IMG/VR virus record: IMGVR_UViG_2558860274_000004 | Span: 1 to 18,981 of that record | Direction: 5' to 3' (one strand) | DNA: 18,981 nt | DNA from: a virus | Taxonomy: Duplodnaviria > Heunggongvirae > Uroviricota > Caudoviricetes | Shown here: positions 1,362 to 17,785 of the stretch, piece after piece | Position numbering within the stretch: the first letter of the stretch is position 1 | Layout of the letters: each line of letters begins with the position of its first letter | The notes under the pieces: model-generated | The model's database searches: none | Told to the model about the DNA's origin: nothing | Seen by the model: the letters and a program-made list of their open reading frames with translations, nothing else | Position numbers and translations under genes: made by a program

Positions 1362-1759
1362 TTACTCCATAACAGGGACAGCAGGCCACTCAATATCAGG
1401 TGCAGTTGATGTATCAACACGGTTCAGCAACACCCGATACTTCTTCCAGACTTCCAGCAACGAGGTTTCTTCCTCCGTTGCGATTTCCAGATCTGCAGCA
1501 TCCTGAAGTGGCGCGATATGCTCACTGGCTACCTGCATCAGGCTGTTTTTTGTTTCTTCCGCTTCAGGCGAGCCATGCATCCACAAATGATCATCGCGTC
1601 ATCGTCACAACATTGCGGGCGGGATTTTACTTTTGAAGGGATTAGTCCTTTAAATCCTGCAGCAATAGACGACCAGGTGACATCCTCGTGATTATTTGCC
1701 ACCCATGCCCCCCAACGTTCAAGAACCATTTGAATATCACGCATCAACTTTCTCCACAA
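1362..1759 (-). pseudogene. Q-family late antiterminator-like gene, split into two frames at a T6/A6 homopolymer
   Basis: ORF 1538..1759 (minus) encodes [24 protein letters not shown]...[16 protein letters not shown], which I recall as the N-terminus of small enterobacterial Q-like antiterminators. It stops just after a homopolymer (plus-strand tttttt at 1545-1550). ORF 1362..1586 continues in another frame. A 1-nt indel in the run would join them into about 130 aa. Confidence 0.5.
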
Positions 1760-1761
1760 AA

Positions 1762-2757
1762 TCAGGCCAGCACGCCAATTGCCAGCGCACGATCGATAAA
1801 ACGAAATATCAGCTCCAGCTGGGAGCCATACTTCTCTTCAAATGCCACGGTATCCGCATGCAGCTCGTCGTGATGCTTTCTGCACAAAGGCAACACAAAA
1901 AGGTCATGCGCTTTTGTTCCCATTCCACCCTGACCGTGACCTATCAGGTGGTGGGGATCATCAGCGGGCTTTCCACAACATGCACACGGCTGTGTCATAA
2001 CCCAGCGCGTGTACTTTTCATTAACCCAGCGGCGACGTTTTGGGCGTAACATAAAAGACTCCGGCGACTCCGGATCCACTTTCAGCGCCAGCACCTTTTT
2101 CGCCTTATCCTGGATGATGCTGGTGGCAGGAACCGAAGGCACAAGGTCACTTTCCCGGGTAACAGACGGCACAACAGGCTTCGGTAATCTCAGTGCCTTA
2201 CGGGCTGCACTTTCCGGTAAGGCATCCGCCAGATCATTACGAATCAGCCACCAGCACAGTTCCGGCATTGTCACAACGTGACTGTCATCAAAACCGAGAT
2301 CCCGACGCACAACAGACAACACCCAGCGGGCACAGTTATCCGTTGCCATTGATTCCAGCCGTTCCGTGAACTGATCGCGCAGCTGGTTATCGCAGTGCCA
2401 GCACAGACGGATTGCACCCGGAGCGTGTCGCATTGTGGTCATGTTCTCGCTGTGCCAGTCGGAATGAGGCCACTGGCAGCCTTTTTCACGAAGTAACCAG
2501 CTTTCAAGACATTCCACGCCACCAGCACGACGGATCACTGCCTCATCGCGGAACACGGCCCGAACGGCAGGATCATCCGCCAGCAGTTGTGATGCCGCCG
2601 GAACGGCACCACTGGCGAAAGATGAATAACGCTCCGGCTCAGGCTCCAGCAGGACACGCCCCTGCATAAACAGGGGCATCAGCTCTGAACCTGGCCTGAA
2701 CAATACGATCCCCATACGCGGGGCAATTTCAGGGGTCAGTAGTGCTCTCACGGTCAC
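1762..2757 (-). CDS. DUF968-like prophage protein with C-terminal Cys/His-rich (HNH-like) motif
   Basis: 331-aa ORF. C-terminus [43 protein letters not shown] shows a C-x2-C ... HH ... C-x2-HH pattern typical of DUF968/HNH-like proteins found just upstream of Q in lambdoid prophages. GTG start abutting the upstream gene. Confidence 0.65.
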
Positions 2758-2758
2758 C

Positions 2759-3304
2759 TCAATGAACGGTATCGAGCAGCTTTAACAGCTCAGGGAATCG
2801 GGATTCGAAGAAATGCGGCTGCGTCTCGCGCGGATTTGCGGGACTGGTGATGTTCTTACCGAACATGCAGCCTTTCGCTGTCAGCGACCAGAATTTTTTG
2901 ATGTTGTTAATCGCGGTACGGCTGTATCGTTCGCGCTGCTCGACGATCCCCAGCTTCACCATCTGGTGATATGCCTGATTAGCCGTCAGGCGGATAACCG
3001 GTCCCCACTCCACCAGCATTCTTTTCACCTGTCTGTCGTCTTCCCACACACCCGCGTGGGTCAGGGCGTCAAACAGCGCCTTGTTATAGTTGTCCAGATC
3101 GCGGATCCGGTTAACTGGCTTTGAAGTACGGGTCTTCGCGTTTTTCTGTGTACGTGCTGACGGACGGCGATAAGCGCAGGGAAAGCTCATCCCATTTTTC
3201 CCGCAGCTTCGACGGGCTGAGCACGTTACGGCACCAGAACGGATCGCGGCTGACGCGGCTGTACATCTCGCAGATTTGTTTGTGAGTACGACCATCCTGC
3301 ACAC
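2759..3304 (-). CDS. RusA-family Holliday-junction resolvase-like ORF (motif clear, N-terminal boundary uncertain)
   Basis: Contains RIRDLDNYNKALFDALTHAGVWEDDRQV, which aligns with the RusA catalytic-Asp core ([28 protein letters not shown] from memory). The ORF-track N-terminus (GTG start, Arg/Ser/Ala-rich) does not look like RusA and overlaps the 3' end of the upstream O-like ORF by about 190 nt in another frame. True start may be the internal ATG near 3190, or the gene is frameshifted. Confidence 0.5.
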   Translation of the reverse strand: MCRMVVLTNKSARCTAASAAIRSGAVTCSARRSCGKNGMSFPCAYRRPSARTQKNAKTRTSKPVNRIRDLDNYNKALFDALTHAGVWEDDRQVKRMLVEWGPVIRLTANQAYHQMVKLGIVEQRERYSRTAINNIKKFWSLTAKGCMFGKNITSPANPRETQPHFFESRFPELLKLLDTVH

Positions 3305-4022
3305 ACATCAGGCGAATTTCGTTTGCCCAGGCTGTCCAGTTCGGTTCTTTGGGACGAACCACCTCGCCGTCACATTCGGCGGCCTGCTCGTACAGGGCAA
3401 TGATTTTTTTCCAGAGCCACTGTGCGCAGGTCAAATCATCCTGCGTTCCCCACTGGCGCTTTTTAGGGCTGAATACAACCGCATCAGGATGGCGAGTTAA
3501 AAAATCCTTTTCAGCCGTCTGCGTGTCCGGTTGCGAAGCGTCCGGACGAGAAGGTTTTTTATCTGACGGATCATGTTTTGATTTTACTGACGGATCCCCG
3601 CCAGATTCTGACGGGTGAAAACCCGCTTTTTTGCCAGATTTCGACGCATCAAATTTTGACGGGTCAGATTTTGATGCGTCAGATTTTGATGCGTCAGATT
3701 TTGACGGGTCAGAATCTGACAGTTGAGAAAATGCCGCTGCCTGAAGCTTCGCAACGTTAAGCTGATAAACATTCGACGCATTGCGGTTACCCTGGCGACG
3801 CGCCTTACGCGTTAACCAGCCTTCTGCTTCCAGCCGTGCGATAGCCGTTCTGACGGTGCTCATCCCCGCGCCAATCTGGCGGGCAATGGTTTCAATTGAT
3901 GGCCAGCACACACCTTCGTCATTACTGAAATCAGCCAGGCGGGCCATAATTGCCACGCTGGATAACTTCATGCCTGACGCAGCGCAACCATCCCATACAT
4001 AGCCGGTTAATTTAGTGCTCAT
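3111..4022 (-). CDS. replication initiator protein (lambda O-like role) with HTH N-terminus and internal iteron-encoded repeat
   Basis: 303-aa ORF with GAGG Shine-Dalgarno 7 nt upstream of ATG at 4022. N-terminal winged-HTH-like segment (SIETIARQIGAGMSTVRTAIARLEAEGWL). Central SKSDASKSDASKSDPSKFDASK repeat is encoded by 15-bp direct DNA repeats, the arrangement of lambdoid O genes that carry ori inside the coding sequence. Confidence 0.7.
   Translation of the reverse strand: MSTKLTGYVWDGCAASGMKLSSVAIMARLADFSNDEGVCWPSIETIARQIGAGMSTVRTAIARLEAEGWLTRKARRQGNRNASNVYQLNVAKLQAAAFSQLSDSDPSKSDASKSDASKSDPSKFDASKSGKKAGFHPSESGGDPSVKSKHDPSDKKPSRPDASQPDTQTAEKDFLTRHPDAVVFSPKKRQWGTQDDLTCAQWLWKKIIALYEQAAECDGEVVRPKEPNWTAWANEIRLMCVQDGRTHKQICEMYSRVSRDPFWCRNVLSPSKLREKWDELSLRLSPSVSTYTEKREDPYFKAS
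3580..3725. repeat. iteron array (candidate prophage origin of replication) inside the initiator gene
   Basis: At least four tandem 15-bp units (gtcagattttgatgc, gtcagattttgatgc, gtcagattttgacgg, gtcagaatctgacag) at about 3656-3722, plus degenerate copies upstream (ctgacggatc at 3582-3600). Each unit has internal dyad symmetry (tcagattttga vs tcaaaatctga). Confidence 0.6.
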
Positions 4023-4031
4023 GACCGACCT

Positions 4032-4370
4032 CTATTTCCCTGAATTTACGACGAAACTGTTCGAGCGGACTGAAGCATTCATGCTCATAACCTTCGCGGA
4101 GGTAGATAACCCGTTGTGTTTCCGGCTCCCAACGAATGACTCTGACGGGCACTCCGTAGTGATCTTTGAACCAGCGGTTAACTTGTCGCAAAGGACTGTC
4201 TCCTTCTGCCGGTTGAAATCACCCACAGCCCACTCTGCAAAGCTGTGGGTTACAATTTCCCTATCACCTGGTACATTCACTGCATAGCAATATTCCACCT
4301 TCGCTTTTCCACCCGGTACAGGAAGCGCAATCAGTTGCGAGCGACGGTAGTGTGTTGTTAAACTGTTCAT
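4032..4370 (-). CDS. hypothetical protein (112 aa)
   Basis: ATG at 4370 overlaps the TGA stop of the upstream CII-like gene (ATGA overlap, translational coupling). Stop at 4032-4034 lies 10 nt before the initiator start. No recognisable motif. Confidence 0.45.
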
Positions 4371-4924
4371 GCGTTAGTTTCTCCACAACCAGAAGCAATC
4401 GACGCCACGACGCCCGGAGCTGCACACTCGCGGGCGTCATTACTTTCTGAAATGCAAAAAATTTTGTAGACAAGTGCTGCATGCTCCTGCAGCTTCGAAA
4501 TTGAGAGATACAGCTCGTCGTTAATTGCTGTCTTCTCATGCGGTTCCACTACGCCGTCTTCGATTGCTGAACGAATCTGTTTTGAATAACTGCCGATCTG
4601 TTCAATGACTTCCAGCAGACGCTGGTTAATATCGGCGTTGTCCACATCCTCGACGTCAGGAAGAGACACAAAGACGCCATTTGCAGACTGCGCCACAGCA
4701 TCAGCAATGAAGTGAGTGCCACCAGCACGCTGTAAAACCATTGCCCATCCCAGCGGGAAAATCTGATCGCCATCTGCACGAAGGCGGTTGAATAAAGCGT
4801 TTTCTGTTACATCGAGCCAGTCAGCCGCTTCAGCGTAACCACCCGGCAACGCCGCGATAGTTTTTCTGACAGCTTTCACGTACCACTCAGGCTGTTTTTC
4901 CACTTTCCAGTGATGATTACCCAC
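4367..4924 (-). CDS. CII-like phage regulatory protein (family assignment tentative)
   Basis: 185-aa ORF directly downstream of cro-like gene in the same operon. GTG start preceded by AGGAGG 6 nt upstream. Position and size fit CII-like prophage regulators; no catalytic motif seen. Confidence 0.5.
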
Positions 4925-5177
4925 GGCTTACCTCCTGTTCCTGTGGTTTAAACCCATTCTGGTTTTGGCTAGATTGAAAACGTGCCGGATAAAGAATCTG
5001 CATTTCGCTGATTTCACCCTTAAAAAAATTGGCCAGACGTTCTGCAAGATCGATAGATGGAATTTGTTCCAGTCTTTCAATACGACTCAGCGTCGCTGGA
5101 TTGACCTGAACGCCAGCAGCAACATGCTGCAAAGTAAATCCGTGCGCCTTACGCACATTCCGTAATGGTGATTGCAT
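4917..5177 (-). CDS. Cro/XRE-type HTH transcriptional regulator (cro-like)
   Basis: 86-aa ORF divergent from the cI-like gene. GGAGG Shine-Dalgarno 4-8 nt upstream of ATG at 5175-5177. Helix-turn-helix-like segment FTLQHVAAGVQVNPATLSRIE. Confidence 0.75.
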   Translation of the reverse strand: MQSPLRNVRKAHGFTLQHVAAGVQVNPATLSRIERLEQIPSIDLAERLANFFKGEISEMQILYPARFQSSQNQNGFKPQEQEVSRG

Positions 5178-5274
5178 ATGACCTCCACATATTGCGTGAT
5201 GAGCATATTATTTCACGCAAATATTTTGCGCAAGTTGATTTGCTTAACGCGCAATAAAGAAATGTAATAAACGC
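5178..5274. promoter_or_regulatory. immunity-region divergent promoters and operators between cro-like and cI-like genes
   Basis: 97-bp intergenic region with repeated TTGCG(T/C) / (A/G)CGCAA half-sites: ttgcgtga-N13-tcacgcaa (5192-5220), cgcaaa-tat-tttgcg (5215-5229), ttgcgcaa (5226-5233), acgcgcaa (5247-5254). Candidate -10 taatat for the leftward (cro) promoter on the minus strand at 5205-5210. Candidate ttgctt/tgtaat rightward promoter giving a near-leaderless cI transcript. Confidence 0.55.
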
Positions 5275-5967
5275 ATGAACATAGGAAACCGAGTCAGACA
5301 ACTTCGCCAGGCGAAGAACATGAAAATCGCCGATCTCGCTGAAGCAATAGGAGTGGATGCGGCGAATATCTCACGCCTGGAAACAGGTAAGCAGAAACAA
5401 TTCACTGAACAAGCCCTGAGTAATATTGCCAAGAGCTTAGGTGTTGATATTGCTGATCTCTTTACCTCAGACTTCAAAAGTAATACTGTATGTAAAAACA
5501 GTATTAGTGAGGATGTTGCGCAGGTGAAGGATGTATTCCGTATTGAAATGCTGGATGTCAGTGCCAGTGCGGGAAATGGCCTTATCCAGGGCGGTGATGT
5601 CATTGATGTGATTCATGCCATTGAATACAGAACTGATAATGCTGTATCGATGTTTGGCGGACGGCCAGCCAATCACATTAAAGTTATCAACGTTCGTGGG
5701 GACAGTATGTGTCCAGCCATTGAGCCAGGAGATCTCATCTTCGTTGATGTCAGTATCAATCAGTTTGATGGAGATGGTATCTATGTATTTGGTTTTGATG
5801 ATAAAATTTATGTCAAACGACTGCAAATGATACCTGACAAACTACTGGTGATTTCTGATAACCAGATTTACCGTGAATGGGGAATTACCAGCGAAAATGA
5901 ACACCGGTTTATGGTCTTTGGAAAGGTCTTAATCAGCCAGTCACAAACCCTTAAGCGACACAATTAA
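5275..5967 (+). CDS. cI-like repressor, LexA/S24 family (N-terminal XRE HTH plus C-terminal autocleaving peptidase domain)
   Basis: 230-aa ORF. HTH segment MKIADLAEAIGVDAANISRLETG. Ala-Gly candidate cleavage site in SASAGNG (about residues 99-100). Ser in VRGDSMCP and Lys in YVKRL spaced 37 residues apart as in the LexA Ser/Lys dyad. Confidence 0.9.
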   Translation: MNIGNRVRQLRQAKNMKIADLAEAIGVDAANISRLETGKQKQFTEQALSNIAKSLGVDIADLFTSDFKSNTVCKNSISEDVAQVKDVFRIEMLDVSASAGNGLIQGGDVIDVIHAIEYRTDNAVSMFGGRPANHIKVINVRGDSMCPAIEPGDLIFVDVSINQFDGDGIYVFGFDDKIYVKRLQMIPDKLLVISDNQIYREWGITSENEHRFMVFGKVLISQSQTLKRHN

Positions 5968-5987
5968 CCCTTACCTCCTCATCAATT

Positions 5988-6009
5988 AGCCACCCAAAGG
6001 TGGCTTTTC
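5988..6009 (+). terminator. intrinsic terminator downstream of cI-like gene
   Basis: agccacc (5988-5994), caaa loop, ggtggct (5999-6005), followed by tttcatt. Confidence 0.5.
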
Positions 6010-6485
6010 ATTACCCTTTAAATTGCATATCTCGCAACAAAAGCACTTGCATAATGCGCAACTTCATTTTATCTTTCTTTCCAGACAAACAAACAAGGTA
6101 CTAACAAAATTTGGTTGTAACACGGCGTATGGCACATGCGTCGTTAGCGGTCTGGGGACGTTAAAGGGGACAATCCACTCCTTGCTCGGGCAAACAAACC
6201 AGGTAGCCGGAATGTGCAAGTCAATGATGATGCTGATAAGACGCCTAACCAGCGTGGCGATCCGGTTTGACGCCTGGGAAGAGACCAGGGTGCAACGATG
6301 AGGGCATTTATAGAGCCGCGACAAAGTGTGGTGCCGTAACTGGCTAAGTGCTCTCAGCGTTGTGGTAATCCGCGAAATGGCGCGGCGGTAAGTATGGCGG
6401 GGTTACTCTTTCCCCGTTGAGGACACCGGATTGTCAGGTTGACCATACGCCTGAGTGACAACCCCACCACAACAGCCACTGCTTT

Positions 6486-6532
6486 GGCGGTACCAGTTTG
6501 TACACTTGCTTCCTGCTGGTACCGCTCTTTTT
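6486..6532 (+). terminator. strong hairpin plus T-tract inside the long leader upstream of the early-left genes
   Basis: ggcggtaccag (6486-6496), about 19-nt loop, ctggtaccgc (6516-6525), followed by tcttttt (6526-6532). Confidence 0.5.
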
Positions 6533-6669
6533 ACAAAACAGAGAAGAGCATCACCGGACGACGGGCTCATAACCCAATCCATCCGGGCGGCTGCCACCGC
6601 AGGTGTTCTTCTCTGTTTTGTGGAGAAACCAACCGACCTTGCAGGGTCGATATGATGAGGAGCAGCAAA

Positions 6670-7032
6670 ATGGCTAGCGAACGCAGTACTGATGTGCAGG
6701 CATTTATCGGGGAGCTGGACGGCGGCGTATTTGAAACCAAAATCGGCGCAGTTCTCAGTGAAGTCGCTTCCGGTGTGATGAACACGAAAACCAAAGGTAA
6801 GGTCTCACTCAACCTGGAAATCGAACCATTTGATGAGAACCGTGTGAAAATCAAACACAAACTCTCATATGTTCGCCCGACTAACCGCGGGAAAATTTCC
6901 GAAGAAGACACCACCGAAACGCCGATGTATGTCAATCGCGGTGGTCGCCTGACTATTCTGCAGGAAGACCAGGGACAATTACTGACTCTTGCCGGTGAAC
7001 CTGACGGAAAACTACGCGCAGCAGGTCATTAA
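6670..7032 (+). CDS. small early prophage protein (about 121 aa), hypothetical
   Basis: ORF track gives 6439..7032, but the plausible start is ATG at 6670 with GAGGAG about 8 nt upstream. The upstream extension overlaps the terminator hairpin and has no ribosome-binding site. Size resembles a YfdP-like protein (recollection only). Confidence 0.5.
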   Translation: MASERSTDVQAFIGELDGGVFETKIGAVLSEVASGVMNTKTKGKVSLNLEIEPFDENRVKIKHKLSYVRPTNRGKISEEDTTETPMYVNRGGRLTILQEDQGQLLTLAGEPDGKLRAAGH

Positions 7033-9535: not shown

Positions 9536-9961
9536 ATGGAATTACAGGACTGGCGAAAAGAACCTCGTAAAAACTATTCGAATGAATTCAAACTTCGTAT
9601 GGTGGAACTGGCATCACAACCTGGAGCTTGTGTTGCACAGATTGCACGTGAAAATGGCGTCAATGATAATGTTATTTTCAAATGGCTCAGGCTCTGGCAG
9701 AACGAAGGGCGTGTTTCGCGGCGTCTTCCGGTAACGACCTCTTCTGACACTGGCGTTGAATTATTACCTGTAGAAATAACGCCGGATGAGCAGAAAGAAC
9801 CTGTGGCGGCCATTGCGCCGTCTTTATCCACTTCCACTCAGACCAGAGTCAGTGCCAGTTCCTGCAAGGTGGAATTCCGTCACGGCAACATGACGCTGGA
9901 AAATCCATCGCCAGAGCTGCTCACAGTGTTGATCCGTGAACTGACCGGGAGGGGAAGATGA
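9536..9961 (+). CDS. tnpA: IS66-family accessory protein TnpA (orf1)
   Basis: 141-aa ORF with HTH-like N-terminus (NYSNEFKLRMVELASQPGACVAQIARENGV), first gene in the IS, overlapping tnpB by 4 nt. Confidence 0.8.
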   Translation: MELQDWRKEPRKNYSNEFKLRMVELASQPGACVAQIARENGVNDNVIFKWLRLWQNEGRVSRRLPVTTSSDTGVELLPVEITPDEQKEPVAAIAPSLSTSTQTRVSASSCKVEFRHGNMTLENPSPELLTVLIRELTGRGR

Positions 9962-10308
9962 TCTCACTCCCATCAGGTACCCGTATCTGGCTCGTTGCCG
10001 GCGTTACCGATATGCGTAAATCCTTCAACGGACTGGGAGAACAGGTACAACATGTGCTGAATGATAATCCCTTCTCCGGTCACCTGTTTATCTTCCGTGG
10101 CCGACGGGGTGACACCGTCAAAATTCTTTGGGCTGATGCTGATGGTCTGTGCCTGTTCACCAAACGCCTGGAGGAAGGCCAGTTTATCTGGCCTGCGGTA
10201 CGTGACGGCAAGGTATCCATTACCCGCTCGCAACTGGCAATGCTCCTCGATAAGCTGGACTGGCGTCAGCCAAAAACATCCAGCCGTAACTCACTGACAA
10301 TGTTGTAA
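9958..10308 (+). CDS. tnpB: IS66-family TnpB (orf2)
   Basis: 116-aa ORF (LPSGTRIWLVAGVTDMRKSFNGL...) in the characteristic middle position of IS66 elements. Confidence 0.8.
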   Translation: MISLPSGTRIWLVAGVTDMRKSFNGLGEQVQHVLNDNPFSGHLFIFRGRRGDTVKILWADADGLCLFTKRLEEGQFIWPAVRDGKVSITRSQLAMLLDKLDWRQPKTSSRNSLTML

Positions 10309-10338
10309 AAAACTCCTGACCGCATTATAAAAACGGTC

Positions 10339-11952
10339 ATGAGTCAGAAATACCTCATTCGCATCGCAGAGCTGGAAAGGTTGCTCTCTGAGCAGGCTGA
10401 AGCCCTCCGTCAGAAAGACCAGCAACTGAGTCTGGTTGAAGAGACGGAAGCCTTCCTGCGCTCTGCACTGACACGTGCCGAAGAAAAGATCGAAGAAGAT
10501 GAACGGGAAATAGAACATCTGCGGGCTCAGATAGAAAAACTGCGCCGGATGCTGTTCGGTACCCGTTCTGAAAAACTGCGTCGTGAAGTTGAACTGGCTG
10601 AGGCTCTGCTGAAACAACGTGAACAGGACAGCGATCGTTACAGTGGGCGGGAAGACGATCCTCAGGTTCCCCGCCAGTTGCGACAGTCGCGCCATCGTCG
10701 TCCGTTACCGGCACACCTTCCCCGTGAAATACACCGCCTGGAGCCAGAAGAAAGCTGTTGCCCGGAGTGTGGCGGTGAGCTGGATTATCTGGGGGAAGTC
10801 AGCGCTGAACAGCTGGAACTGGTGAGCAGTGCCCTGAAAGTGATCCGCACAGAACGGGTAAAAAAAGCCTGTACAAAATGTGACTGTATTGTTGAAGCAC
10901 CGGCGCCGTCCCGCCCGATAGAGCGTGGTATCGCGGGCCCCGGATTACTTGCCCGCGTGTTAACGGGAAAATACTGCGAACATCTGCCACTGTATCGTCA
11001 GAGTGAAATCTTTGCCCGCCAGGGTGTCGAACTGAGCCGGGCCTTACTCTCCAACTGGGTTGACGCGTGCTGCCAGTTAATGACACCGGTGAATGATGCC
11101 CTGTACCGTTATGTAATGAACACCCGCAAGGTTCACACTGATGACACACCGGTAAAGGTACTGGCACCGGGTCAGAAAAAGGCGAAAACAGGGCGTATCT
11201 GGACGTATGTCCGGGATGATCGCAATGTGGGTTCGTCATCTCCTCCAGCGGTCTGGTTCGCGTACTCGCCGAACCGGCAGGGGAAACACCCGGAGCAACA
11301 CCTCCGCCCCTTCCGGGGTATCCTGCAGGCGGATGCGTTCACAGGTTACGACAGGTTGTTCAGTGCAGGACGTGAAGGTGGTGCACTGACAGAAGTTGCG
11401 TGCTGGGCCCATGCCCGGCGAAAAATCCACGATGTATACATCAGCAGCAAAAGTGCGACGGCAGAAGAAGCACTGAAGCGAATCAGTGAACTGTACGCCA
11501 TCGAGGATGAAATACGGGGATTACCGGAGTCAGAGCGTCTTGCCGTCAGGCAGCAGCGAAGCAAAGTGTTACTGACGTCGCTGCATGAATGGATGGTGGA
11601 GAAGAATGGTACGCTGTCGAAAAAATCCAGACTGGGCGAAGCGTTCAGCTATGTACTGAATCAGTGGGATGCCCTCTGTTATTACAGTGATGACGGTCTG
11701 GCGGAGGCGGATAATAATGCTGCGGAAAGAGCGCTTCGTGCAGTCTGTCTCGGAAAGAAAAACTTTATGTTCTTTGGCAGCGATCACGGCGGCGAGCGTG
11801 GAGCACTGTTGTACGGGCTGATCGGCACCTGCCGTCTGAACGGTATCGATCCGGAAGCGTATCTGCGCCATATCCTGAGCGTACTGCCGGAATGGCCTTC
11901 CAACCGAGTTGATGAACTCCTGCCATGGAACGTAGTACTCACCAATAAATAA
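10339..11952 (+). CDS. tnpC: IS66-family transposase TnpC (orf3)
   Basis: 537-aa ORF with N-terminal coiled-coil/leucine-zipper region, CxxC...CxxC zinc-finger-like motif (CCPECGGEL...CTKCDC) and a C-terminal catalytic region, as in IS66 transposases. Confidence 0.85.
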   Translation: MSQKYLIRIAELERLLSEQAEALRQKDQQLSLVEETEAFLRSALTRAEEKIEEDEREIEHLRAQIEKLRRMLFGTRSEKLRREVELAEALLKQREQDSDRYSGREDDPQVPRQLRQSRHRRPLPAHLPREIHRLEPEESCCPECGGELDYLGEVSAEQLELVSSALKVIRTERVKKACTKCDCIVEAPAPSRPIERGIAGPGLLARVLTGKYCEHLPLYRQSEIFARQGVELSRALLSNWVDACCQLMTPVNDALYRYVMNTRKVHTDDTPVKVLAPGQKKAKTGRIWTYVRDDRNVGSSSPPAVWFAYSPNRQGKHPEQHLRPFRGILQADAFTGYDRLFSAGREGGALTEVACWAHARRKIHDVYISSKSATAEEALKRISELYAIEDEIRGLPESERLAVRQQRSKVLLTSLHEWMVEKNGTLSKKSRLGEAFSYVLNQWDALCYYSDDGLAEADNNAAERALRAVCLGKKNFMFFGSDHGGERGALLYGLIGTCRLNGIDPEAYLRHILSVLPEWPSNRVDELLPWNVVLTNK

Positions 11953-12495: not shown

Positions 12496-15400
12496 TCACA
12501 CGCTGCGCCTTCGAGAATATTCATTTAATCGCTGATAACGAACATCTTGCTCCAGTTGTGGAGCAGCTTGAACAATTTGAAGCAAGCATTGCCCCAACTC
12601 TCGAGGCCCCCAGTGTTGTTCGGCAATCACGGCATTCAGCAGGGATAGAGCGTCCGCAGGATATCGGCTGCAAATATCTGATTCTAGCAAAAGGCGAACG
12701 TCGTAGCTAAGGTGTTCGAGCGGTTGCAGCCAGTCCTGCACCACTGCCAAAGCCGCCGGAAATTCACCTCGGGCAGCAATCACCATACGAGTCAACGATT
12801 CGGATATGCGTGGGGTGGCCAAGTTGCGGGACTTTGGCCAAACCTGTTGCCAAAATGGCTGGACACGATTTTTCCAATACTCCTCGCGCTGATCGCCCGC
12901 ACCTTCAAGTGCCTGGTATAACGCCTGCGCGGCTACCTCCAGACCTTCTTGTGGAAGAGCACTAATTGCCGTTCGGAACTCCTCCACGGTATATCCCTCG
13001 GTAGGGCCCAGAGCTGCATAAGTCAGGAAAATAGCGAATTGCTGCCGGTGCTCGCCAAGATCAGAATAGTGATTGGCGCTCTCCAAAAAATCTGACTTGA
13101 AAGCTATCAGCAACGGTTCATACAGGCGTGGCGACCAGAGGAAGCCTTCCCACACAGCTTTTGCTTCGACGGGATTACTCCAAGCAAACAAGGGCAATAG
13201 ATACTGTTCGGTCCAAGGTCGATCTACGCGAAAAAATGCGATCAGCCGCGACCCCAGCAACACCCGACCATGGCGGAATAGCTCTATCTGTACATTACAC
13301 AATTTGGTGAAAAGTGTTTTCAATTCAACAGGAAGCAAATCATTGTCATTCGGGTTCTGTTTGAACCATAGGGTGATCAGTGATTGCGTGACATGCCCAA
13401 TGGGATGATTGATCGCCGTAGAAACAGGATCATAGGTCTCAATTCCGTTTCGAATGGTGCTAGACTCTGGGCTTGTTTCTATCATCAGAACCCGACGACA
13501 AAGGGCCAGTAGAATCTCCTCGTGGCAGAGGATGGTCTTCGAAGCCTCCTCCATCCACCAAGTGACAGCGTGGGAAATCTCCTGAAGTACTGCGTCAGGC
13601 ATGTCAAGCACCAACGGTGCGGCGTACCGCCACGAACGCATAATCATCCCTGGTTCAGCCCAAGTCTGCAGAGCTTCACGCCACCGACCAACAGGCCACA
13701 CATCATCTTGTGATAGTTTACGTAACGCATACAGACTGTGAAAAAAGCGCGTACGGCAAACATCACTCCAAGTGTCCTCATAGAAAGGCAGTCTTTCTGG
13801 CATAGGCTTTGCGAGCCATTGCACTAATTCCTGCCACTTACGGGGCGCAATGTCGACATCTATACTCTCCTCGAAGCCTGGATCACCGGTTCCGCTCATC
13901 CAGTGAGAGAATTCATCACGCTCGTTGGTTGCCAGTTGCCATTTTGGGTATGCTGTGGATATTTCCGTCAAACGTGTAGCCGCAGACTCTCCCAAAACAA
14001 GGCCCGCTCCCCTGAGCTTCGCTAGACACAACCAGACGGAATGAGCCACCAAATAATGCCACCTGTCTGCTTCCAAATTATCCTCGTACATCTCGCGCGG
14101 AGGCCCTGCCAAGATAGCAGTTTCCAGACGCTCTTGTGCAATTCCTGTCAGATGTCGTCCCTGCAAAACAAACAGTCTGAATACCTCTCGCCGAGTATCC
14201 GTGGCCCACAACCACCATGAACCGTCCTCTAACAACCAATTAACCCACCGCTCAGGTGGTATGCAGTTGTCTTGGCTTGCGGCAAACAGTGCCAGACGTT
14301 TGAAGGTGGGATATGGCAACTCAAACCAATTCTGAGCAATGCGCGAGGCCTGATCGCTGTCTTTGGCTCGAACGGCTAACCATGAATCCCGAAGTAATTC
14401 AATCAGGCTCACCCAATCGCGGAACCCCCGGTTCTGCCAGTGCGGAGTGATGGACGGCAAATCCCAATGCGAGCGGTCGTGACGATCGTCGGACTCTCCC
14501 AACTCCCGCAACAAGTCCAGTGCATCACGCAACAACTGCTGAAAATCTTCCAACAGGTATGGCAAGGACGATTTCCATGACTCGTCAGCAAGGTCGAACA
14601 GGGTTGAACGTACGTAATCAGCAGTCAGCACCAGCTCCCAATCCACCAATTGCTTGATTCGCAAGGGTTCATCAGTGCTGCTCGAATCGTCTTCACTATA
14701 GCGAAACGGCCGCCTCAACATAACCTTGGGAGAAAGCAACTCGCGTAACTCCAAGCGCAATGTAGTCGTCAAGCCTTCATTCTTTAAGCGGTTTTGCCAA
14801 CGATACAAATCCAGGTTCTGCAATGGCGATTTCACACGACCACTAAGCAGAAGCCGCCATAAAGTAGACATAGGTGGACCAGGAATAGCCAGGGGGGAAT
14901 GCAAGAGAATTTCATCTAACTCAGAAGTCTTACGCTCCCGCATCAGTGCTGCTAAGCGATCTAGTTCGCTCTCAATCAGAAACATCCAACGGTCGTGTAT
15001 TTGTCCGCCGCGTTCAGCAATCCATATGATCAACCTAGGGTCGCCCAGATAACGAACTAGCCAACGGGCTATATGGGACATTACGTCATCCCATTTGCTA
15101 GCACTGACACATCCAGAAACCAGCGACATCTGCGGGGCCAGCTCATAGGGCGCAGGACGCTGAACCAGACTGAATCGGAGTTTCGGGTCAATTTCGACAT
15201 GCGGAGATACACAAAAGCGTGGCAGATCGCTGTATTTAAATCGTTCGTCCGAGAAAGCTTTCAATAACCAATCCAGCGGCGGTGCAGGATTGAGTTCCGC
15301 AAAGCGTTTTGCTGGTAAACCTGATTTATCTGACAAGGCCCACAACATCCGACCAACGAAATCGTCCTGACGAGTGCTGTCCTGCGGGCGGGCCAGAGCA

Positions 15401-16323
15401 TGTTTGACGACTATAGCCTCTTTGCCCTGTATACCATCTCGATAAGTATCTGCCCAAGCGTGCAACGTTTGATGCAGCACTGAATGATCAGTGGAGCCCG
15501 CCGGTACGGTGTAAAGGATAGGAGTGACCCCTTTGGCCTCCCACTCGATGGCTTTCCGGTGCTCCTGCCCCGGCTCACACTCCCCCAGTGCCCATACTTG
15601 TGGTGTGACTTCACCGAGCCTCCGATCTGCTGCAAGCGCATCCATCATGTAGCGCAGTACCGGGTCGTTGATGCTGTAGCCAACGAAGCAGACCACATAG
15701 TTACGAAATAACTCACTCACAAAGCGAGCTGCCCAACGCTCAGTGAGATAAGCCAAGCCAAAGTCACCGCTGGTAACAACCAGACGATTCAGGGCAGTAT
15801 CATCCGCCTTTTCCGGTAACAGCCCATGCAGGTATACAAGTCCATCCCAGCGGCTGTTTTTTGGAATTGGCAGCATCGGCGCTACATAGGCCTGAAAAGC
15901 CTGGCCTGTACGTTTAGCTGCCACATGAAAGAGACGGTCAAAGTTGGTAGTGACCAATCGAAGGGCACCCTCGCGGCTACGGGCTAAACGTAACAGCGCC
16001 GCCTGAGTATCAATAGCGCCCCTACGACGGAGCTTTGGCTTAAGGGCTTTTTCCAACGCGCGTCGGACGGCTATACGCTGCCCTGGTAAGCGCCGTTCCA
16101 GCAAATCTAATGTGCCGTCAAATTGCCCACGCTCGAAAACCTCACGCTCAATTTCTGAAAGTGTTGTTCCGTTCCTCTGGTAAATTAGTTCTACCAACCC
16201 TTTGAAACCAGGTAAACCAGCAGGGTAGGAAATGCCTGCTCCACAGAAGAACACAACGCGCCCTTCCTCGTGCGCCTGCAAAAGCTCATCAGGAATATCA
16301 GGGCCGTTGGTAATGAATTGCAT
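12496..16323 (-). CDS. large SIR2-domain protein (1275 aa): N-terminal SIR2-like NAD+-binding domain plus unassigned C-terminal helical region; candidate single-gene anti-phage defence
   Basis: AGGAGG Shine-Dalgarno 7-8 nt upstream of ATG at 16323. N-terminal motifs VVFFCGAGISYPAGLPGF (GAGIS NAD-binding loop), LVTTNFDRLFH (TQNID-like with catalytic Asn) and VYLHGLL (catalytic His-Gly). No Walker A (GxxxxGK[ST]) found by eye. C-terminal 1000 aa is Leu/Trp/Arg-rich and looks helical-repeat-like. Confidence 0.85.
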   Translation of the reverse strand: MQFITNGPDIPDELLQAHEEGRVVFFCGAGISYPAGLPGFKGLVELIYQRNGTTLSEIEREVFERGQFDGTLDLLERRLPGQRIAVRRALEKALKPKLRRRGAIDTQAALLRLARSREGALRLVTTNFDRLFHVAAKRTGQAFQAYVAPMLPIPKNSRWDGLVYLHGLLPEKADDTALNRLVVTSGDFGLAYLTERWAARFVSELFRNYVVCFVGYSINDPVLRYMMDALAADRRLGEVTPQVWALGECEPGQEHRKAIEWEAKGVTPILYTVPAGSTDHSVLHQTLHAWADTYRDGIQGKEAIVVKHALARPQDSTRQDDFVGRMLWALSDKSGLPAKRFAELNPAPPLDWLLKAFSDERFKYSDLPRFCVSPHVEIDPKLRFSLVQRPAPYELAPQMSLVSGCVSASKWDDVMSHIARWLVRYLGDPRLIIWIAERGGQIHDRWMFLIESELDRLAALMRERKTSELDEILLHSPLAIPGPPMSTLWRLLLSGRVKSPLQNLDLYRWQNRLKNEGLTTTLRLELRELLSPKVMLRRPFRYSEDDSSSTDEPLRIKQLVDWELVLTADYVRSTLFDLADESWKSSLPYLLEDFQQLLRDALDLLRELGESDDRHDRSHWDLPSITPHWQNRGFRDWVSLIELLRDSWLAVRAKDSDQASRIAQNWFELPYPTFKRLALFAASQDNCIPPERWVNWLLEDGSWWLWATDTRREVFRLFVLQGRHLTGIAQERLETAILAGPPREMYEDNLEADRWHYLVAHSVWLCLAKLRGAGLVLGESAATRLTEISTAYPKWQLATNERDEFSHWMSGTGDPGFEESIDVDIAPRKWQELVQWLAKPMPERLPFYEDTWSDVCRTRFFHSLYALRKLSQDDVWPVGRWREALQTWAEPGMIMRSWRYAAPLVLDMPDAVLQEISHAVTWWMEEASKTILCHEEILLALCRRVLMIETSPESSTIRNGIETYDPVSTAINHPIGHVTQSLITLWFKQNPNDNDLLPVELKTLFTKLCNVQIELFRHGRVLLGSRLIAFFRVDRPWTEQYLLPLFAWSNPVEAKAVWEGFLWSPRLYEPLLIAFKSDFLESANHYSDLGEHRQQFAIFLTYAALGPTEGYTVEEFRTAISALPQEGLEVAAQALYQALEGAGDQREEYWKNRVQPFWQQVWPKSRNLATPRISESLTRMVIAARGEFPAALAVVQDWLQPLEHLSYDVRLLLESDICSRYPADALSLLNAVIAEQHWGPRELGQCLLQIVQAAPQLEQDVRYQRLNEYSRRRSV

Positions 16324-16616: not shown

Positions 16617-17785
<1,169 letters not shown>

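Follow-up and report, generated by a model that had tools for sequence, protein, structure and literature searches.

DicF is a textbook small RNA of prophage origin. In the Qin prophage of Escherichia coli K-12 it lies in an untranslated stretch of a repressor-controlled early-left operon, beside a cI/cro-type switch (dicA/dicC). RNase III and RNase E are required for both its 190-nt and its 53-nt form, and no internal promoter was found; the longer form has as its body the sequence upstream of dicF, and RNase III generates its 5' end (bioRxiv 10.1101/2023.04.14.536235). At the 3' end, DicF is finished either by Rho-independent termination or by RNase III, which cuts read-through RNA to give a 72-nt form; DicF binds Hfq (PMC5069750). 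The dicBF operon has been described in terms of partial termination and RNase III processing of read-through transcripts, with no dedicated antiterminator reported (PMC5069750; bioRxiv 10.1101/2023.04.14.536235). A search of about 2,000 phage genomes in 2016 found no DicF in active phages (PMC5069750).

Several other systems invite comparison. STnc100 (RF02076) and PasD are prophage-encoded small RNAs of ~170-200 nt and, together with DicF, are described as abundant, Hfq-associated and trans-acting (PMC5069750; PMC8550237; bioRxiv 10.64898/2026.05.13.724894); classical STnc100 and PasD have been located in late regions, close to stx, Q and the lysis genes (PMC12370729; bioRxiv 10.64898/2026.05.13.724894). 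Phage P1 carries an annotated "dicF-like region" directly after the C1-controlled promoter Pban (Pban/Op72), and phage HK022 places a put RNA of ~70 nt with two stems in each of its early operons (putL and putR).

We compared these systems with the leader that separates cI from the early-left genes in the window, by which we mean the whole stretch of 18,981 nucleotides analysed. This leader is a chain of portable structured-RNA modules with no nut/N cassette. In a single joint judgement covering the whole explanation, we think it probable that positions 6083-6669 are the non-coding start of the repressor-controlled early-left (pL) transcript in a lambdoid prophage of SfV/mEp460/cdtI type, that a DicF-family small-RNA locus ends at the terminator reported in this leader, and that this locus operates in the way reported for the Qin dicBF operon.

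Layout and coding potential of the leader

Four RNA modules follow one another on the + strand (module A, a DicF-precursor-like domain, a terminator hairpin and a long hairpin), and together with their surroundings they give the following features.

5988-6008, + strand: terminator of the cI (immunity) transcript
6023-6075, + strand: putative OL/pL
6112-6357, + strand: module A, an unnamed structured RNA defined by covariation and a covariance model
6359-6475, + strand: DicF-precursor-like domain
6476-6532, + strand: putative DicF-like small-RNA hairpin, which is also an intrinsic terminator by structure
6533-6621, + strand: long hairpin (inverted repeat I4), a probable RNase III substrate
6562-6575, + strand: tip of the long hairpin, matching the initiator-tRNA anticodon stem-loop
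6620-6669, + strand: initiation region of the first early-left gene, defined by conservation across genera

The cI gene, an S24 repressor by Pfam, ends at 5967. Its terminator, recognised by a terminator scan and from the sequence, is a 7-bp hairpin (AGCCACC/GGUGGCU, 5988-6005) with a short interrupted T-tail, and the weakness of this tail (UUUCAUU) suggests that it leaks. Beyond it stand two operator-like 15-mers, TTGC-N7-GCAA, at 6023-6037 and 6047-6061, with a candidate -35 element (TTGCAT, 6047-6052), a 17-nt spacer and a candidate -10 element (TATCTT, 6070-6075), from which transcription is expected to start near 6082. The same 15-mer recurs between cro and cI, at 5240 with two mismatches and in part at 5192, and similarity to phages of other immunity types starts at 6094-6106, just downstream of the putative promoter. 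Promoter prediction had been suggested as a check on the leader; the scan did not call this pL, and we keep it as putative because only 3 of 6 and 4 of 6 positions match the consensus elements. At the other end of the leader the first early-left gene, which is yfdP-like, begins with an ATG at 6670 preceded by the Shine-Dalgarno sequence GAGGAG (6657-6662), and relatives found by tblastn align from residue 1. Its initiation region opens with the near-invariant GUGGAGAAACUAAC (6620-6633), followed by a small hairpin, CGACC-UUGCAG-GGUCG (6634-6649), with one compensatory pair; other leaders carry similar hairpins with (G/U)UGCAG loops ahead of the ribosome-binding site.

The original prediction described an untranslated leader with no convincing ORF before 6670, and comparative analysis bears this out, having found no conserved small protein-coding gene, the outcome that had been named as fatal to the idea. 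There is no conserved ORF in 6010-6669 and no conserved start codon with a ribosome-binding site in the leader. At most 12 of 42 diverged representatives keep any given reading frame open through the core of module A; neither the indels between homologous leaders nor the variable inserts have lengths divisible by three; and substitutions in helices are compensatory. All of this speaks against unrecognised small protein genes, whether the minus-strand ORFs of phage mEp460 or plus-strand ORFs at 6023-6301 and 6455-6655. Such genes might be suspected from ORFs of 41-92 codons on both strands and from the "hypothetical proteins" that annotators of mEp460, Ayreon and other phages have called here. 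However, the mEp460 ORFs run on the opposite strand within covarying helices, and among the RefSeq matches listed the full-length ones carry no annotation at the leader, "hypothetical protein" appearing only under partial matches. The protein calls that several phage records make here are thus probably spurious, and we regard a protein-coding explanation as extremely improbable.

Structure prediction and covariation analysis across relatives, also suggested beforehand, revealed conserved and covarying structures in the leader. Conserved structured RNA, rather than spacer, makes up about 500 of the 650 nt, and the fold of the whole leader (6083-6675) has z = -5.2 on the + strand. G-U pairs are invariant or frequent in module A and in the long hairpin, so these are RNAs of the + strand only. 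The first reading of the sequence had overlooked this structured content. No tRNA was found by a tRNA scan of the window; Phytobacter prophages and phage TL-2011b carry real tRNAs in the same slot. A search of Rfam 15, run on the window at gathering thresholds and on 5900-6800 at E <= 10, gave no match in the region, and the probe sequences of the EPEC small RNAs PasA to PasD, with up to 4 errors allowed, had no match in the window. An Rfam match to IS009 lies elsewhere in the window, outside the leader.

The terminator and the DicF-like locus

A strong GC-rich hairpin followed by tcttttt about 140 nt upstream of the first gene was the central observation of the original prediction, and it holds. 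The 5' arm GGCGGUACCAG (6486-6496) and the 3' arm CUGGUACCGC (6516-6525) form an 11-bp stem with a fold energy of about -22 kcal/mol around a C/U-rich 19-nt loop, UUUGUACACUUGCUUCCUG, which includes CUUGCUUCC, and the stem is followed by UCUUUUU (6526-6532), the first early-left gene lying 140 nt further on. The consensus terminator scan, which accepts loops of 3-8 nt, passed over the hairpin because of this longer loop. Loss of the hairpin in relatives had been named as evidence against the idea; instead, all 21 leaders that we collected by anchoring on the downstream gene (from Escherichia, Shigella, Mangrovibacter, Enterobacter, Leclercia, Kosakonia, Phytobacter, Providencia and others) have a hairpin of -18 to -30 kcal/mol followed by at least 5 T. 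Their stems differ by compensatory changes, as in GGCGGUACC/GGUACCGCC versus GGCGGCGUC/GGCGCCGC versus GGUGGC/GCCACC, so that the structure combines the GC-rich hairpin and U-tract of an intrinsic terminator with conservation and stem covariation. The loop sequence varies widely across genera and is always C/U-rich (UUCC, UUUCCC, CCCUU). By analogy with the Qin homologue, termination would occur at 6526-6532 with some efficiency that a 19-nt loop may lower and an 11-bp stem may raise.

What lies upstream of the hairpin ties it to DicF. Positions 6359-6475, a domain of 117 nt closed by the helix GUUGUGGU (6359-6366) / ACCACAAC (6466-6473), share ~91-93% identity with the Qin sequence that directly precedes dicF, and the terminator shares UUUGGCGGUA[C/U]CAGUUU, in the 5' arm, and CCGC[U/C]CUUUUUA, with the U-tail, with DicF itself. 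The operon position agrees as well: here too the precursor domain sits in an untranslated stretch of the early-left operon next to a cI/cro switch, and in both loci a long helix directly follows the terminator. On this comparison, 6359-6532 would correspond to the 190-nt long DicF and the hairpin to the 53-nt form. A further homologue of the precursor domain is the dicF-like region of P1, where a repressor-controlled early operon likewise opens with such a domain and a terminator of its own; unlike the locus here, the P1 region ends in an unrelated hairpin, GCCCAUCUUCGGGUGGGC.

Both regions through which DicF recognises its targets are replaced here. The 19 nt of Qin with the 5' seed UUUCUGGUGACG, which pairs with xylR mRNA, are missing from the window; the loop and the 3' arm differ, and the loop has no ACUCCG stretch of the kind with which DicF pairs with ftsZ. 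Targeting of ftsZ by the new loop was not supported: its duplex energy with ftsZ -60 to +30 is worse than that of 99.8% of shuffles in a crude comparison that ignores intramolecular structure. The first downstream gene is yfdP-like rather than dicB, the helix after the terminator differs in sequence and has a tRNA-like tip here, and module A is absent from Qin. Rfam's curated DicF model (RF00039) gave no match in 5900-6800 at E <= 10, its gathering score of 48 bits was not reached, and family membership by that model fails; genuine DicF scores 76.7 bits, and the hairpins of sister leaders are weak matches at 28.4 and 15.9 bits.

A second line of comparison leads to STnc100 and PasD, whose length is close to the ~180 nt of the locus here. 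Sister leaders (those of SfII, two further relatives designated L037 and L002, and others) align with STnc100 over its full length at 34-45 bits, all below the gathering threshold of 47; the 3' terminator of the model is the same hairpin, and its closing helix (U)GGUGAAU...CACCA corresponds to the closing helix of the precursor domain here. Neither the window nor the mEp460 version matches STnc100, because other sequence has taken the place of the domain's interior; in mEp460, as in other phages, this swap leaves the closing helix intact. A tRNA-derived origin of 6359-6475, with its closing helix replacing an acceptor stem, was considered and kept as a lead only; at the same junction, tRNA-Arg comes next after module A in 5 of its 42 copies. 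Unlike classical STnc100 and PasD in their late regions, the locus described here is early.

If the locus operates as reported for Qin dicBF, then when pL fires, or when cI transcripts leak through, some polymerases would stop at 6526-6532. [quoted passage not shown] Polymerases that read through would transcribe the long hairpin, formed right after the terminator, and an RNase III cut there would separate the small RNA from the first early-gene mRNA and remodel its 5' UTR. [quoted passage not shown] With both known DicF seed regions missing, the RNA probably regulates other mRNAs through its C/U-rich loop. Of the readings originally offered, the evidence favours the one that the region may encode a regulatory RNA over put-like antitermination. 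Support for it comes from homology and shared operon position, and also from the sister-leader terminators that close full-length, sub-threshold STnc100 matches.

It could be argued instead that the leader acts purely in cis, the hairpin serving as an attenuator or insulator against leaky early-left expression in lysogens and the other structures setting mRNA stability or translation, with no trans-acting RNA at all. The terminator and long hairpin do travel as a unit before different first genes, the loop is variable between genera and has neither DicF seed, and a second barrier would be useful because cI transcripts run in the same direction and meet a weak-tailed terminator. However, the close homologues DicF, STnc100 and PasD are described as trans-acting, the loops are consistently C/U-rich like anti-Shine-Dalgarno seeds, and an insulator would not need a 117-nt domain that is more than 90% conserved between unrelated prophages. 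We consider a purely cis-acting leader distinctly unlikely.

The DicF-type cassette occurs in at least 1,148 of 5,426 complete E. coli genomes and in functional temperate phages, including mEp460, cdtI, Ayreon, Stx2c and Stx2a converting phages and SfII. It keeps the precursor body and terminator and replaces both target-recognition regions, an arrangement that would amount to a family of interchangeable seed cartridges on a common processing scaffold and that would bear on host reprogramming at induction, including that by Shiga-toxin phages.

Module A and the question of antitermination

Module A, which opens the transcript, is a conserved RNA in its own right, and its strand and covariation are well supported whatever its role. 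Its core, a pseudoknotted RNA of ~180 nt (6120-6296 by covariance model), contains a P1 hairpin (6123-6143), the invariant GGUAGCCGGAAUGUGCAAG (6202-6220), two proposed pseudoknots and a hairpin with a GGAAGAG loop; a closing helix, GAGGGCAUUUAU (6307-6318) / CUAAGUGCUCUC (6343-6354), surrounds a variable insert. In the alignment its 31 pairs are 97.3% paired and 11 of them show compensatory changes, a level reached by none of 500 shuffles, with slid controls at 25-45% paired. A long-range GGCACAU/AUGUGC pairing proposed by RNAalifold was reduced to a 4-bp pseudoknot, because the local P1 hairpin covaries and the long-range pairs never vary. The covariance model R1 was built from 26 diverged sequences and the covariation-supported structure, with the window sequence in its seed; the window scores 145 bits at 6120-6296, and independent members score as well (phage P1 139 bits, a Kosakonia leader, L021, 144 bits and a Phytobacter leader, L022, 162 bits). 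Module A is found once in the window by the R1 search and also in phages P1, P7 and phiV10 and in Stx2c phages. It is absent from Rfam 15, even though P1 is a much-studied phage.

The position of module A, between the putative pL start and the terminator, makes it natural to ask whether the terminator is an antitermination checkpoint, passed only with a processive antiterminator that is either module A in cis or a protein encoded elsewhere. In several other phages the first hairpin of module A starts 7-8 nt after a near-consensus -10, that is, at the transcript start, where putL also begins, and a promoter matching at least 9 of 12 positions lies within 75 nt upstream in 7 of 42 representatives versus 1 of 126 control windows. 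The mEp phage collection has been described as Nus-dependent (PMC11893012); mEp460 is not named there, and if it belongs to that collection, as its name leads us to assume, this would hint at a processive antitermination system. Some sister leaders also carry a perfect boxA, CGCTCTTTAACAA, after pL.

For a lambda-type system, however, the window offers little. The absence of an N gene, as originally noted, stands: there is no Arg-rich N-like ORF, Pfam is empty for N among the neighbouring genes, and the only ORF read by eye, one of 112 aa on the minus strand at 4032-4370 in the pR operon, is not Arg-rich. A boxA/boxB search of the window leader, of the kind originally suggested, found neither element; its only boxA-like string, GCTCTTTT at 6524-6531, is the terminator tail and is not conserved in relatives, and we rejected it as a nut-like site. 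Matches resembling CGCUCUUUAACAA occur in the window at chance level (13 observed, 14 expected).

A put-like RNA had been raised as a route to read-through. Module A and HK022 put are both promoter-proximal structured RNAs in N-less early-left operons, and the first hairpin of module A has a 15-nt local identity with putL: ACGGCG...CAUGCGUCG is shared, with the same 5-bp first stem (CGGCG/CGUCG) including its G-U pair and the preceding CAUG, and there is a U at the position of put U28. In contrast to put, module A is ~180 nt long with several helices and pseudoknots, its first hairpin closes on a 5-nt loop with no duplex inside, the 5' duplex/triplex of put (A3-G7 with C15-U19) is missing, and the essential G35 position is U, C or A in its relatives. 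Comparison with putL and putR by R1, with filters off, gave at best 1.9 bits on the HK022 immunity region, and that hit was not at either put site; membership of the put family was rejected. Module A is also a single copy: the best inverted repeat in the pR operon, 35 nt at 74% inside a replication gene, was taken as chance.

Comparison across phages weakens the connection between module A and the terminator further. In the P1 ban operon, which contains tRNA genes and carries module A just before its first large gene (ban), module A lies ~2.3 kb past the promoter, 2 nt after tRNA-Ile and downstream of the dicF-like terminator, and so cannot serve that terminator; nor does the P1 operon have a long hairpin with a tRNA-like tip. 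In TL-2011b module A precedes a tRNA, a context in which antitermination makes no sense, and many leaders have the same terminator without module A. On balance we rate an antitermination checkpoint as quite unlikely, and continue to prefer partial termination at a DicF-type locus.

Two proposed pseudoknots, invariant joining strands, variable peripheral stems and a terminator downstream are also what might be expected of a riboswitch or attenuator, in which module A or 6359-6475 would sense a ligand, tRNA or protein and switch the terminator by alternative pairing. Yet between module A and the terminator stand ~190 nt of a different domain that moves independently, each of the two occurs without the other (module A being found before tRNA genes or ban with no terminator nearby), no conserved alternative pairing with the terminator arm was seen, and the minimum free energy fold of the full leader keeps the terminator. 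Such a switch is very unlikely. Whatever drives its conservation, module A may be a new class of 5'-proximal phage RNA whose target is the machinery of transcription or RNA decay, such as an antiterminator that binds RNA polymerase and has a fold unrelated to put, shared by P1, P7, phiV10-like and lambdoid/Stx phages.

The long hairpin and its initiator-tRNA-like tip

Processing hairpins cut by RNase III are known from the lambda N leader and from the leader of metY-nusA-infB. The hairpin at 6533-6621 resembles them in being a long, near-perfect helix with an RNA element on its upstream side and the first gene's ribosome-binding site beyond it, and its position and helix length make it a probable RNase III substrate. 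Its arms are 6533-6557 and 6597-6621, and the helix can be extended by pairing of the U-tract at 6528-6532 with GGAGA at 6622-6626. The consensus of 15 sequences from many genera has 38 pairs, 9 of them compensatory. A T-run lies within 70 nt upstream of the long hairpin in 151 of 153 unique contexts, of which 125 have yfdP-like genes next and 28 other first genes. In Qin the analogous helix, GAAUUUUGUGAUG/CAUCACAAAAUUC, comes right after dicF; the RNase III cut that gives the 72-nt DicF (PMC5069750) would fall in this helix, 19 nt past the end of the 53-nt form.

The tip of the long hairpin, CGGGCUCAUAACCC, has a GGG/CCC stem and a CUCAUAA loop and reproduces the anticodon stem-loop of initiator tRNA. 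It is identical over 14 nt to positions 29-42 of E. coli metY (16 of 17 with flanks), compared with a longest match of 10 nt in 300 shuffled leaders, and among 21 leaders chosen without regard to this motif 18 retain it. The minimum free energy fold gives a 3-bp stem with a 7-nt loop, and the consensus fold pairs two of the three G-C. In the metY operon, too, an initiator tRNA is combined with terminators and RNase III sites, which there follow it; here, by contrast, the initiator-tRNA element is a 14-nt anticodon-arm copy at the tip of a helix, and cleavage is predicted.

MetRS recognises the anticodon arm of initiator tRNA, and VapC toxins of Shigella and Salmonella cleave initiator tRNA in that arm. 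The copy may be a functional mimic that engages the 30S P site or IF3 to load ribosomes on the first early gene, or it may be a decoy or sensor for enzymes of the arm such as MetRS and VapC. We think it unlikely, if not markedly so, that module A and the tRNA-arm copy are both RNA devices of new kinds. Conserved before the first early gene across genera, the arm copy provides a concrete way to test for translation control, or for defence and counter-defence directed at tRNA.

The leader and its prophage setting

The window is part of a lambdoid prophage of E. coli of the SfV/SfII/mEp460/cdtI type, in which the following features frame the leader between cI and the first early-left gene.

4367-4924, minus strand: cII-type gene
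4917-5177, minus strand: cro-like HTH gene
5275-5967, plus strand: cI repressor with S24 peptidase domain, facing the cro-like and cII-type genes
5988-6005: cI terminator, a 7-bp hairpin found by terminator scan
6486-6532: terminator hairpin of the leader (arms 6486-6496 and 6516-6525, 19-nt loop, tail UCUUUUU at 6526-6532)
6670 (ATG): yfdP-like gene, first after the leader, followed by a DUF2303 (yfdQ-like) gene and DUF551 genes
9536-11952: IS66 element with three ORFs, interrupting the early-left operon
12496-16323, minus strand: SIR2_2-domain ORF of 1,275 aa after the IS66, which looks like a defence gene
16617-17456, minus strand: IS3-type transposase, after the SIR2 ORF and before the integrase

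The genes after 6670 run in the same direction as cI, an arrangement that matches cI and the pL operon of lambda. The leader at 6010-6669 occupies the slot expected for pL, nutL and N. Two 15-mers of the form TTGC-N7-GCAA lie at 6023-6037 and 6047-6061, and a cro-cI intergenic motif at 5240 matches them with two mismatches. The second 15-mer overlaps a possible -35 element, TTGCAT, followed after 17 nt by TATCTT (6070-6075), from which we infer a pL start near 6082. Phages cdtI and Ayreon and the Stx2c phages, which have other immunity regions, show 99% blastn identity with the window starting at 6094-6106, the pattern expected just 3' of such a start; promoter and start remain putative because the hexamers match the consensus poorly.

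The leader RNA is far more stable than its shuffles, with z-scores of -5.2 (plus strand) and -3.7 (minus strand). The original prediction saw no convincing ORF here, and this holds: no reading frame is conserved among relatives, homologous leaders are distinguished by insertions of arbitrary length, and the ORF calls of mEp460 in this interval lie on the opposite strand and span covarying helices. Comparison by blastn with phages (134 records) and with loci retrieved through the yfdP-like protein resolved the leader into independently exchangeable modules. At least 80% of it was present in 1,148 of 5,426 complete E. coli genomes searched and some part in 4,738, mostly through the Qin-like domain; no RefSeq annotation covered it among the full-length matches listed. 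A search for boxA/boxB-like elements of a nut site found none in the window's leader. A perfect boxA (CGCTCTTTAACAA) does follow pL in sister leaders of another immunity type (L037 1200-1245; also L194), and nut-like signals are thus present or absent by leader in this phage group. The same sister leaders hold a reverse-oriented 159-aa moron with its own terminator (L037 1459-1938, minus strand).

A DicF-type terminator and the hairpin beyond it

The GC-rich hairpin with its T-tail at 6486-6532, and the cI terminator, are present in the sequence as first described; the automatic scan missed the former solely because of its long loop. This hairpin is far from a chance feature. All 21 leaders, gathered from many enterobacterial genera via the downstream protein alone, keep a hairpin (-18 to -30 kcal/mol) and, right after it, a run of five or more T, with compensatory changes in the stem, so that its conservation in relatives, on which the original prediction had hinged, is confirmed.

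Its kinship lies with dicF, the sRNA gene of the Qin dicBF operon. The Rfam family STnc100 gave full-length matches below threshold (36-45 bits against 47) in L037, L040, L002, L033, SfII and L034, with the model's 3' terminator aligned to this hairpin in those sister leaders, and weak DicF matches (28.4 and 15.9 bits) also fell on the terminator hairpin of sister leaders. Window 6359-6475 is ~91-93% identical to the 117 nt directly 5' of dicF in K-12 Qin, while DicF UUUGGCGGUAUCAGUUU aligns with 6483-6499 and DicF CCGCCCUUUUUA with 6522-6533. Both loci are an untranslated part of an operon under a cI-like repressor, and phage P1 has a further homologue of the precursor domain, an annotated 'dicF-like region' directly after the C1-controlled Pban promoter. 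On the comparison with Qin we regard it as settled that the terminator belongs to a DicF-type locus, in which 6359-6532 (174 nt) would correspond, by length, to the 190-nt DicF form. This homology favours the regulatory RNA that had been proposed as one option, and the original interpretation was half right, in that the locus is one of regulatory RNA and neither a nut/N nor a put site.

The window RNA is nevertheless a variant and not DicF itself. Missing are the 19 nt of Qin, TATCAATTTTCTGGTGACG, within which lie the DicF 5' end and its xylR-pairing seed. The loop and 3' arm are also unlike DicF, without the ACUCCG stretch, in our reading of the published pairing the core that pairs with ftsZ. 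A crude duplex calculation gave no special affinity for the ftsZ start region, and the Rfam DicF model had no match in the window (true DicF, 76.7 bits). Across genera the loops are variable yet C/U-rich (UUCC, UUUCCC, CCCUU), a composition that could favour base-pairing to Shine-Dalgarno regions.

The mechanism with most support is the one known from the dicBF operon, transferred here by homology. DicF binds Hfq; Rho-independent termination generates its 3' end, or else RNase III cuts read-through RNA to leave 72 nt (PMC5069750). By analogy, partial termination at 6526-6532 would yield DicF-family RNAs, RNases III and E would trim them, and transcripts reading through would be cleaved in the next hairpin, before the first early gene. 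This hairpin is a 25-bp inverted repeat directly 3' of the U-tract (6533-6557 with 6597-6621). Its consensus fold across 15 diverged sequences has 38 pairs, nine with compensatory changes, and the frequent U-G pairs restrict it to the plus strand; the invariant GGAGA of GUGGAGAAACUAAC is a possible pairing partner of the U-tract itself. In Qin an analogous helix, GAAUUUUGUGAUG/CAUCACAAAAUUC, begins a few bases 3' of dicF, and counting 19 nt past the 3' end of the 53-nt DicF places the reported cut (72-nt form) inside it; by this analogy we take 6533-6621 to be a probable RNase III site.

Conservation in the long hairpin is highest at the tip, CGGGCUCAUAACCC (6562-6575), which reproduces exactly the 14 nt at positions 29-42 of the E. 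coli initiator tRNA metY; the longest metY match in 300 shuffled leaders was 10 nt. Its CUCAUAA loop is closed by three G-C pairs, as in the metY anticodon stem-loop. The minimum free energy fold gives a 3-bp stem with a 7-nt loop, and in the consensus fold two of the three G-C pairs form. The form GGGCUCAU(A/U)(A/C)CCC, or one close to it, occurs in 18 of the 21 leaders, which were not selected by the tip motif. CUCAU could pair with the AUGAG overlapping the Shine-Dalgarno sequence (6655-6659), the arm could attract factors that recognise initiator tRNA, or the tip may survive from a former tRNA gene as a conserved relic.

A search with the tip sequence recovered at least 120 viral contigs. 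A T-run lies within 70 nt upstream in 151 of 153 unique contexts, and the hairpin is followed by a yfdP homologue in 125 and by other first genes in 28, several of these with an N-terminus that is RdgC-like by eye; terminator and hairpin thus form a portable cassette before the first early-left gene. New here are this variant without either DicF seed, in active phages including Shiga-toxin phages, the anticodon-arm copy and module A.

Module A and its likeness to put

Module A is a structured RNA of ~180 nt with proposed pseudoknots, located between the inferred start and the DicF-like domain. It falls within the interval of the original prediction, which did not mention it, and was unexpected.

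6112-6357, plus strand: module A in the window
2512-2695: copy in phage P1 (L237, AF234172.1)
2999-3176: copy in TL-2011b (L113)
1626-1784 and 1641-1803: copies in L017 and L019, respectively

An invariant 19-mer, GGUAGCCGGAAUGUGCAAG (6202-6220), retrieved at least 120 viral contigs, which form 42 clusters at 93% identity; collection via the 19-mer makes its invariance partly one of construction. The structure proposed from 26 diverged sequences comprises a P1 hairpin, a helix around a variable hairpin, a 4-bp helix, a GGAAGAG-loop hairpin and two proposed pseudoknots, one of which never varies. Its 31 pairs are paired in 97.3% of cells and 11 show compensatory changes, values reached in none of 500 shuffles; slid controls gave 25-45% pairing. 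R1, a covariance model built from the nested helices, scored 139-162 bits on independently found copies in phage P1 and in Kosakonia and Phytobacter prophages. Nothing in Rfam 15 resembles module A, and blastn found it in 79 phage records, among them P1, P7, D6, RCS47, phiV10/epsilon15-like phages and phages of Klebsiella, Enterobacter and Salmonella. It shows a tendency towards 5' ends: a near-consensus promoter lies no more than 75 nt upstream of seven of 42 representatives, compared with one of 126 control windows, and in three of the seven the first hairpin begins 7-8 nt after the -10. In three representatives it starts 2 nt after tRNA-Ile, as in P1. At a shared downstream junction, GUUGUGG, it is followed by tRNA-Arg(UCU) in five representatives and by an STnc100/DicF-precursor-like domain in 17. 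Lambdoid and Stx phages carry it as well, and across these phages its usual place is the 5' end of a transcript or the position directly after a tRNA.

A put-like RNA had been suggested to account for read-through. HK022 putL, once located and with its numbering checked against the published structure, shares with the first hairpin of module A the sequence ACGGCG...CAUGCGUCG, the same 5-bp stem and G-U pair, and a U at the position of put U28, a closer likeness than chance would lead us to expect. Module A is not filed under put because it has no 5' duplex/triplex, it does not conserve the essential G35, the pR operon has no second copy, R1 gives no more than 1.9 bits for the HK022 put sites, and in P1 and TL-2011b antitermination of a downstream terminator is not the element's obvious job. 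A put-like mode of action is a minority possibility. The mEp phage collection has been reported as Nus-dependent, in a paper that does not name mEp460 (PMC11893012); if mEp460 belongs to it, as we assume from its name, some antitermination system that escaped these searches may exist.

Related tRNA-like and minor elements

In K-12 Qin (L115 2933-3142) a full-length sub-threshold STnc100-like element (34.4 bits) lies between dicF and dicB, enclosed by the GAAUUUUGUGAUG/CAUCACAAAAUUC helix, and the dicF-dicB spacer is therefore itself an STnc100-type RNA domain. Directly 3' of module A in P1 (L237 2696-2720), UGAUUUUCUGGUGAUGAC resembles AUUUUCUGGUGACG, the 5' end of DicF; segments like the DicF seed seem to be scattered over these leaders. 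The DicF-precursor closing helix GUUGUGGU/ACCACAAC (6359-6366 / 6466-6473) takes exactly the acceptor-stem position of tRNA-Arg(UCU) in other phages, at the junction GUU|GUGGCAU (L113 3242-3315; L131; L135), and L098 has T-arm-like inserts, GGTTCAATTCC and GGTCCGTTCGATTCGGACC. This suggests a tRNA-gene origin, or mimicry of tRNA genes, for sRNA bodies of DicF-precursor type. In Phytobacter prophages (L017 2222-2300, L022 1186-1264) the position just 5' of the conserved terminator is taken by a tRNA-Ile whose anticodon, AAU, is unusual.

Small GC hairpins with (G/U)UGCAG loops recur just 5' of ribosome-binding sites, at times as two or three consecutive copies (window 6634-6649; SfII, L114; upstream of the first-gene site in many L239-L325 loci), and might be a protein-binding or processing signal; examples are CGACC-UUGCAG-GGUCG, GCGC-GGUGCA-GCGC and GGCGG-UGGCA-GCCGCC. 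Window 1405-1607 (minus strand), on the pR side of the prophage, is a full-length Rfam IS009 match (179.9 bits, threshold 117). Five tandem 15-bp CAGATTTTGACGGGT-like repeats at 3635-3734, within the HTH_36 replication-protein gene, are probably origin iterons.
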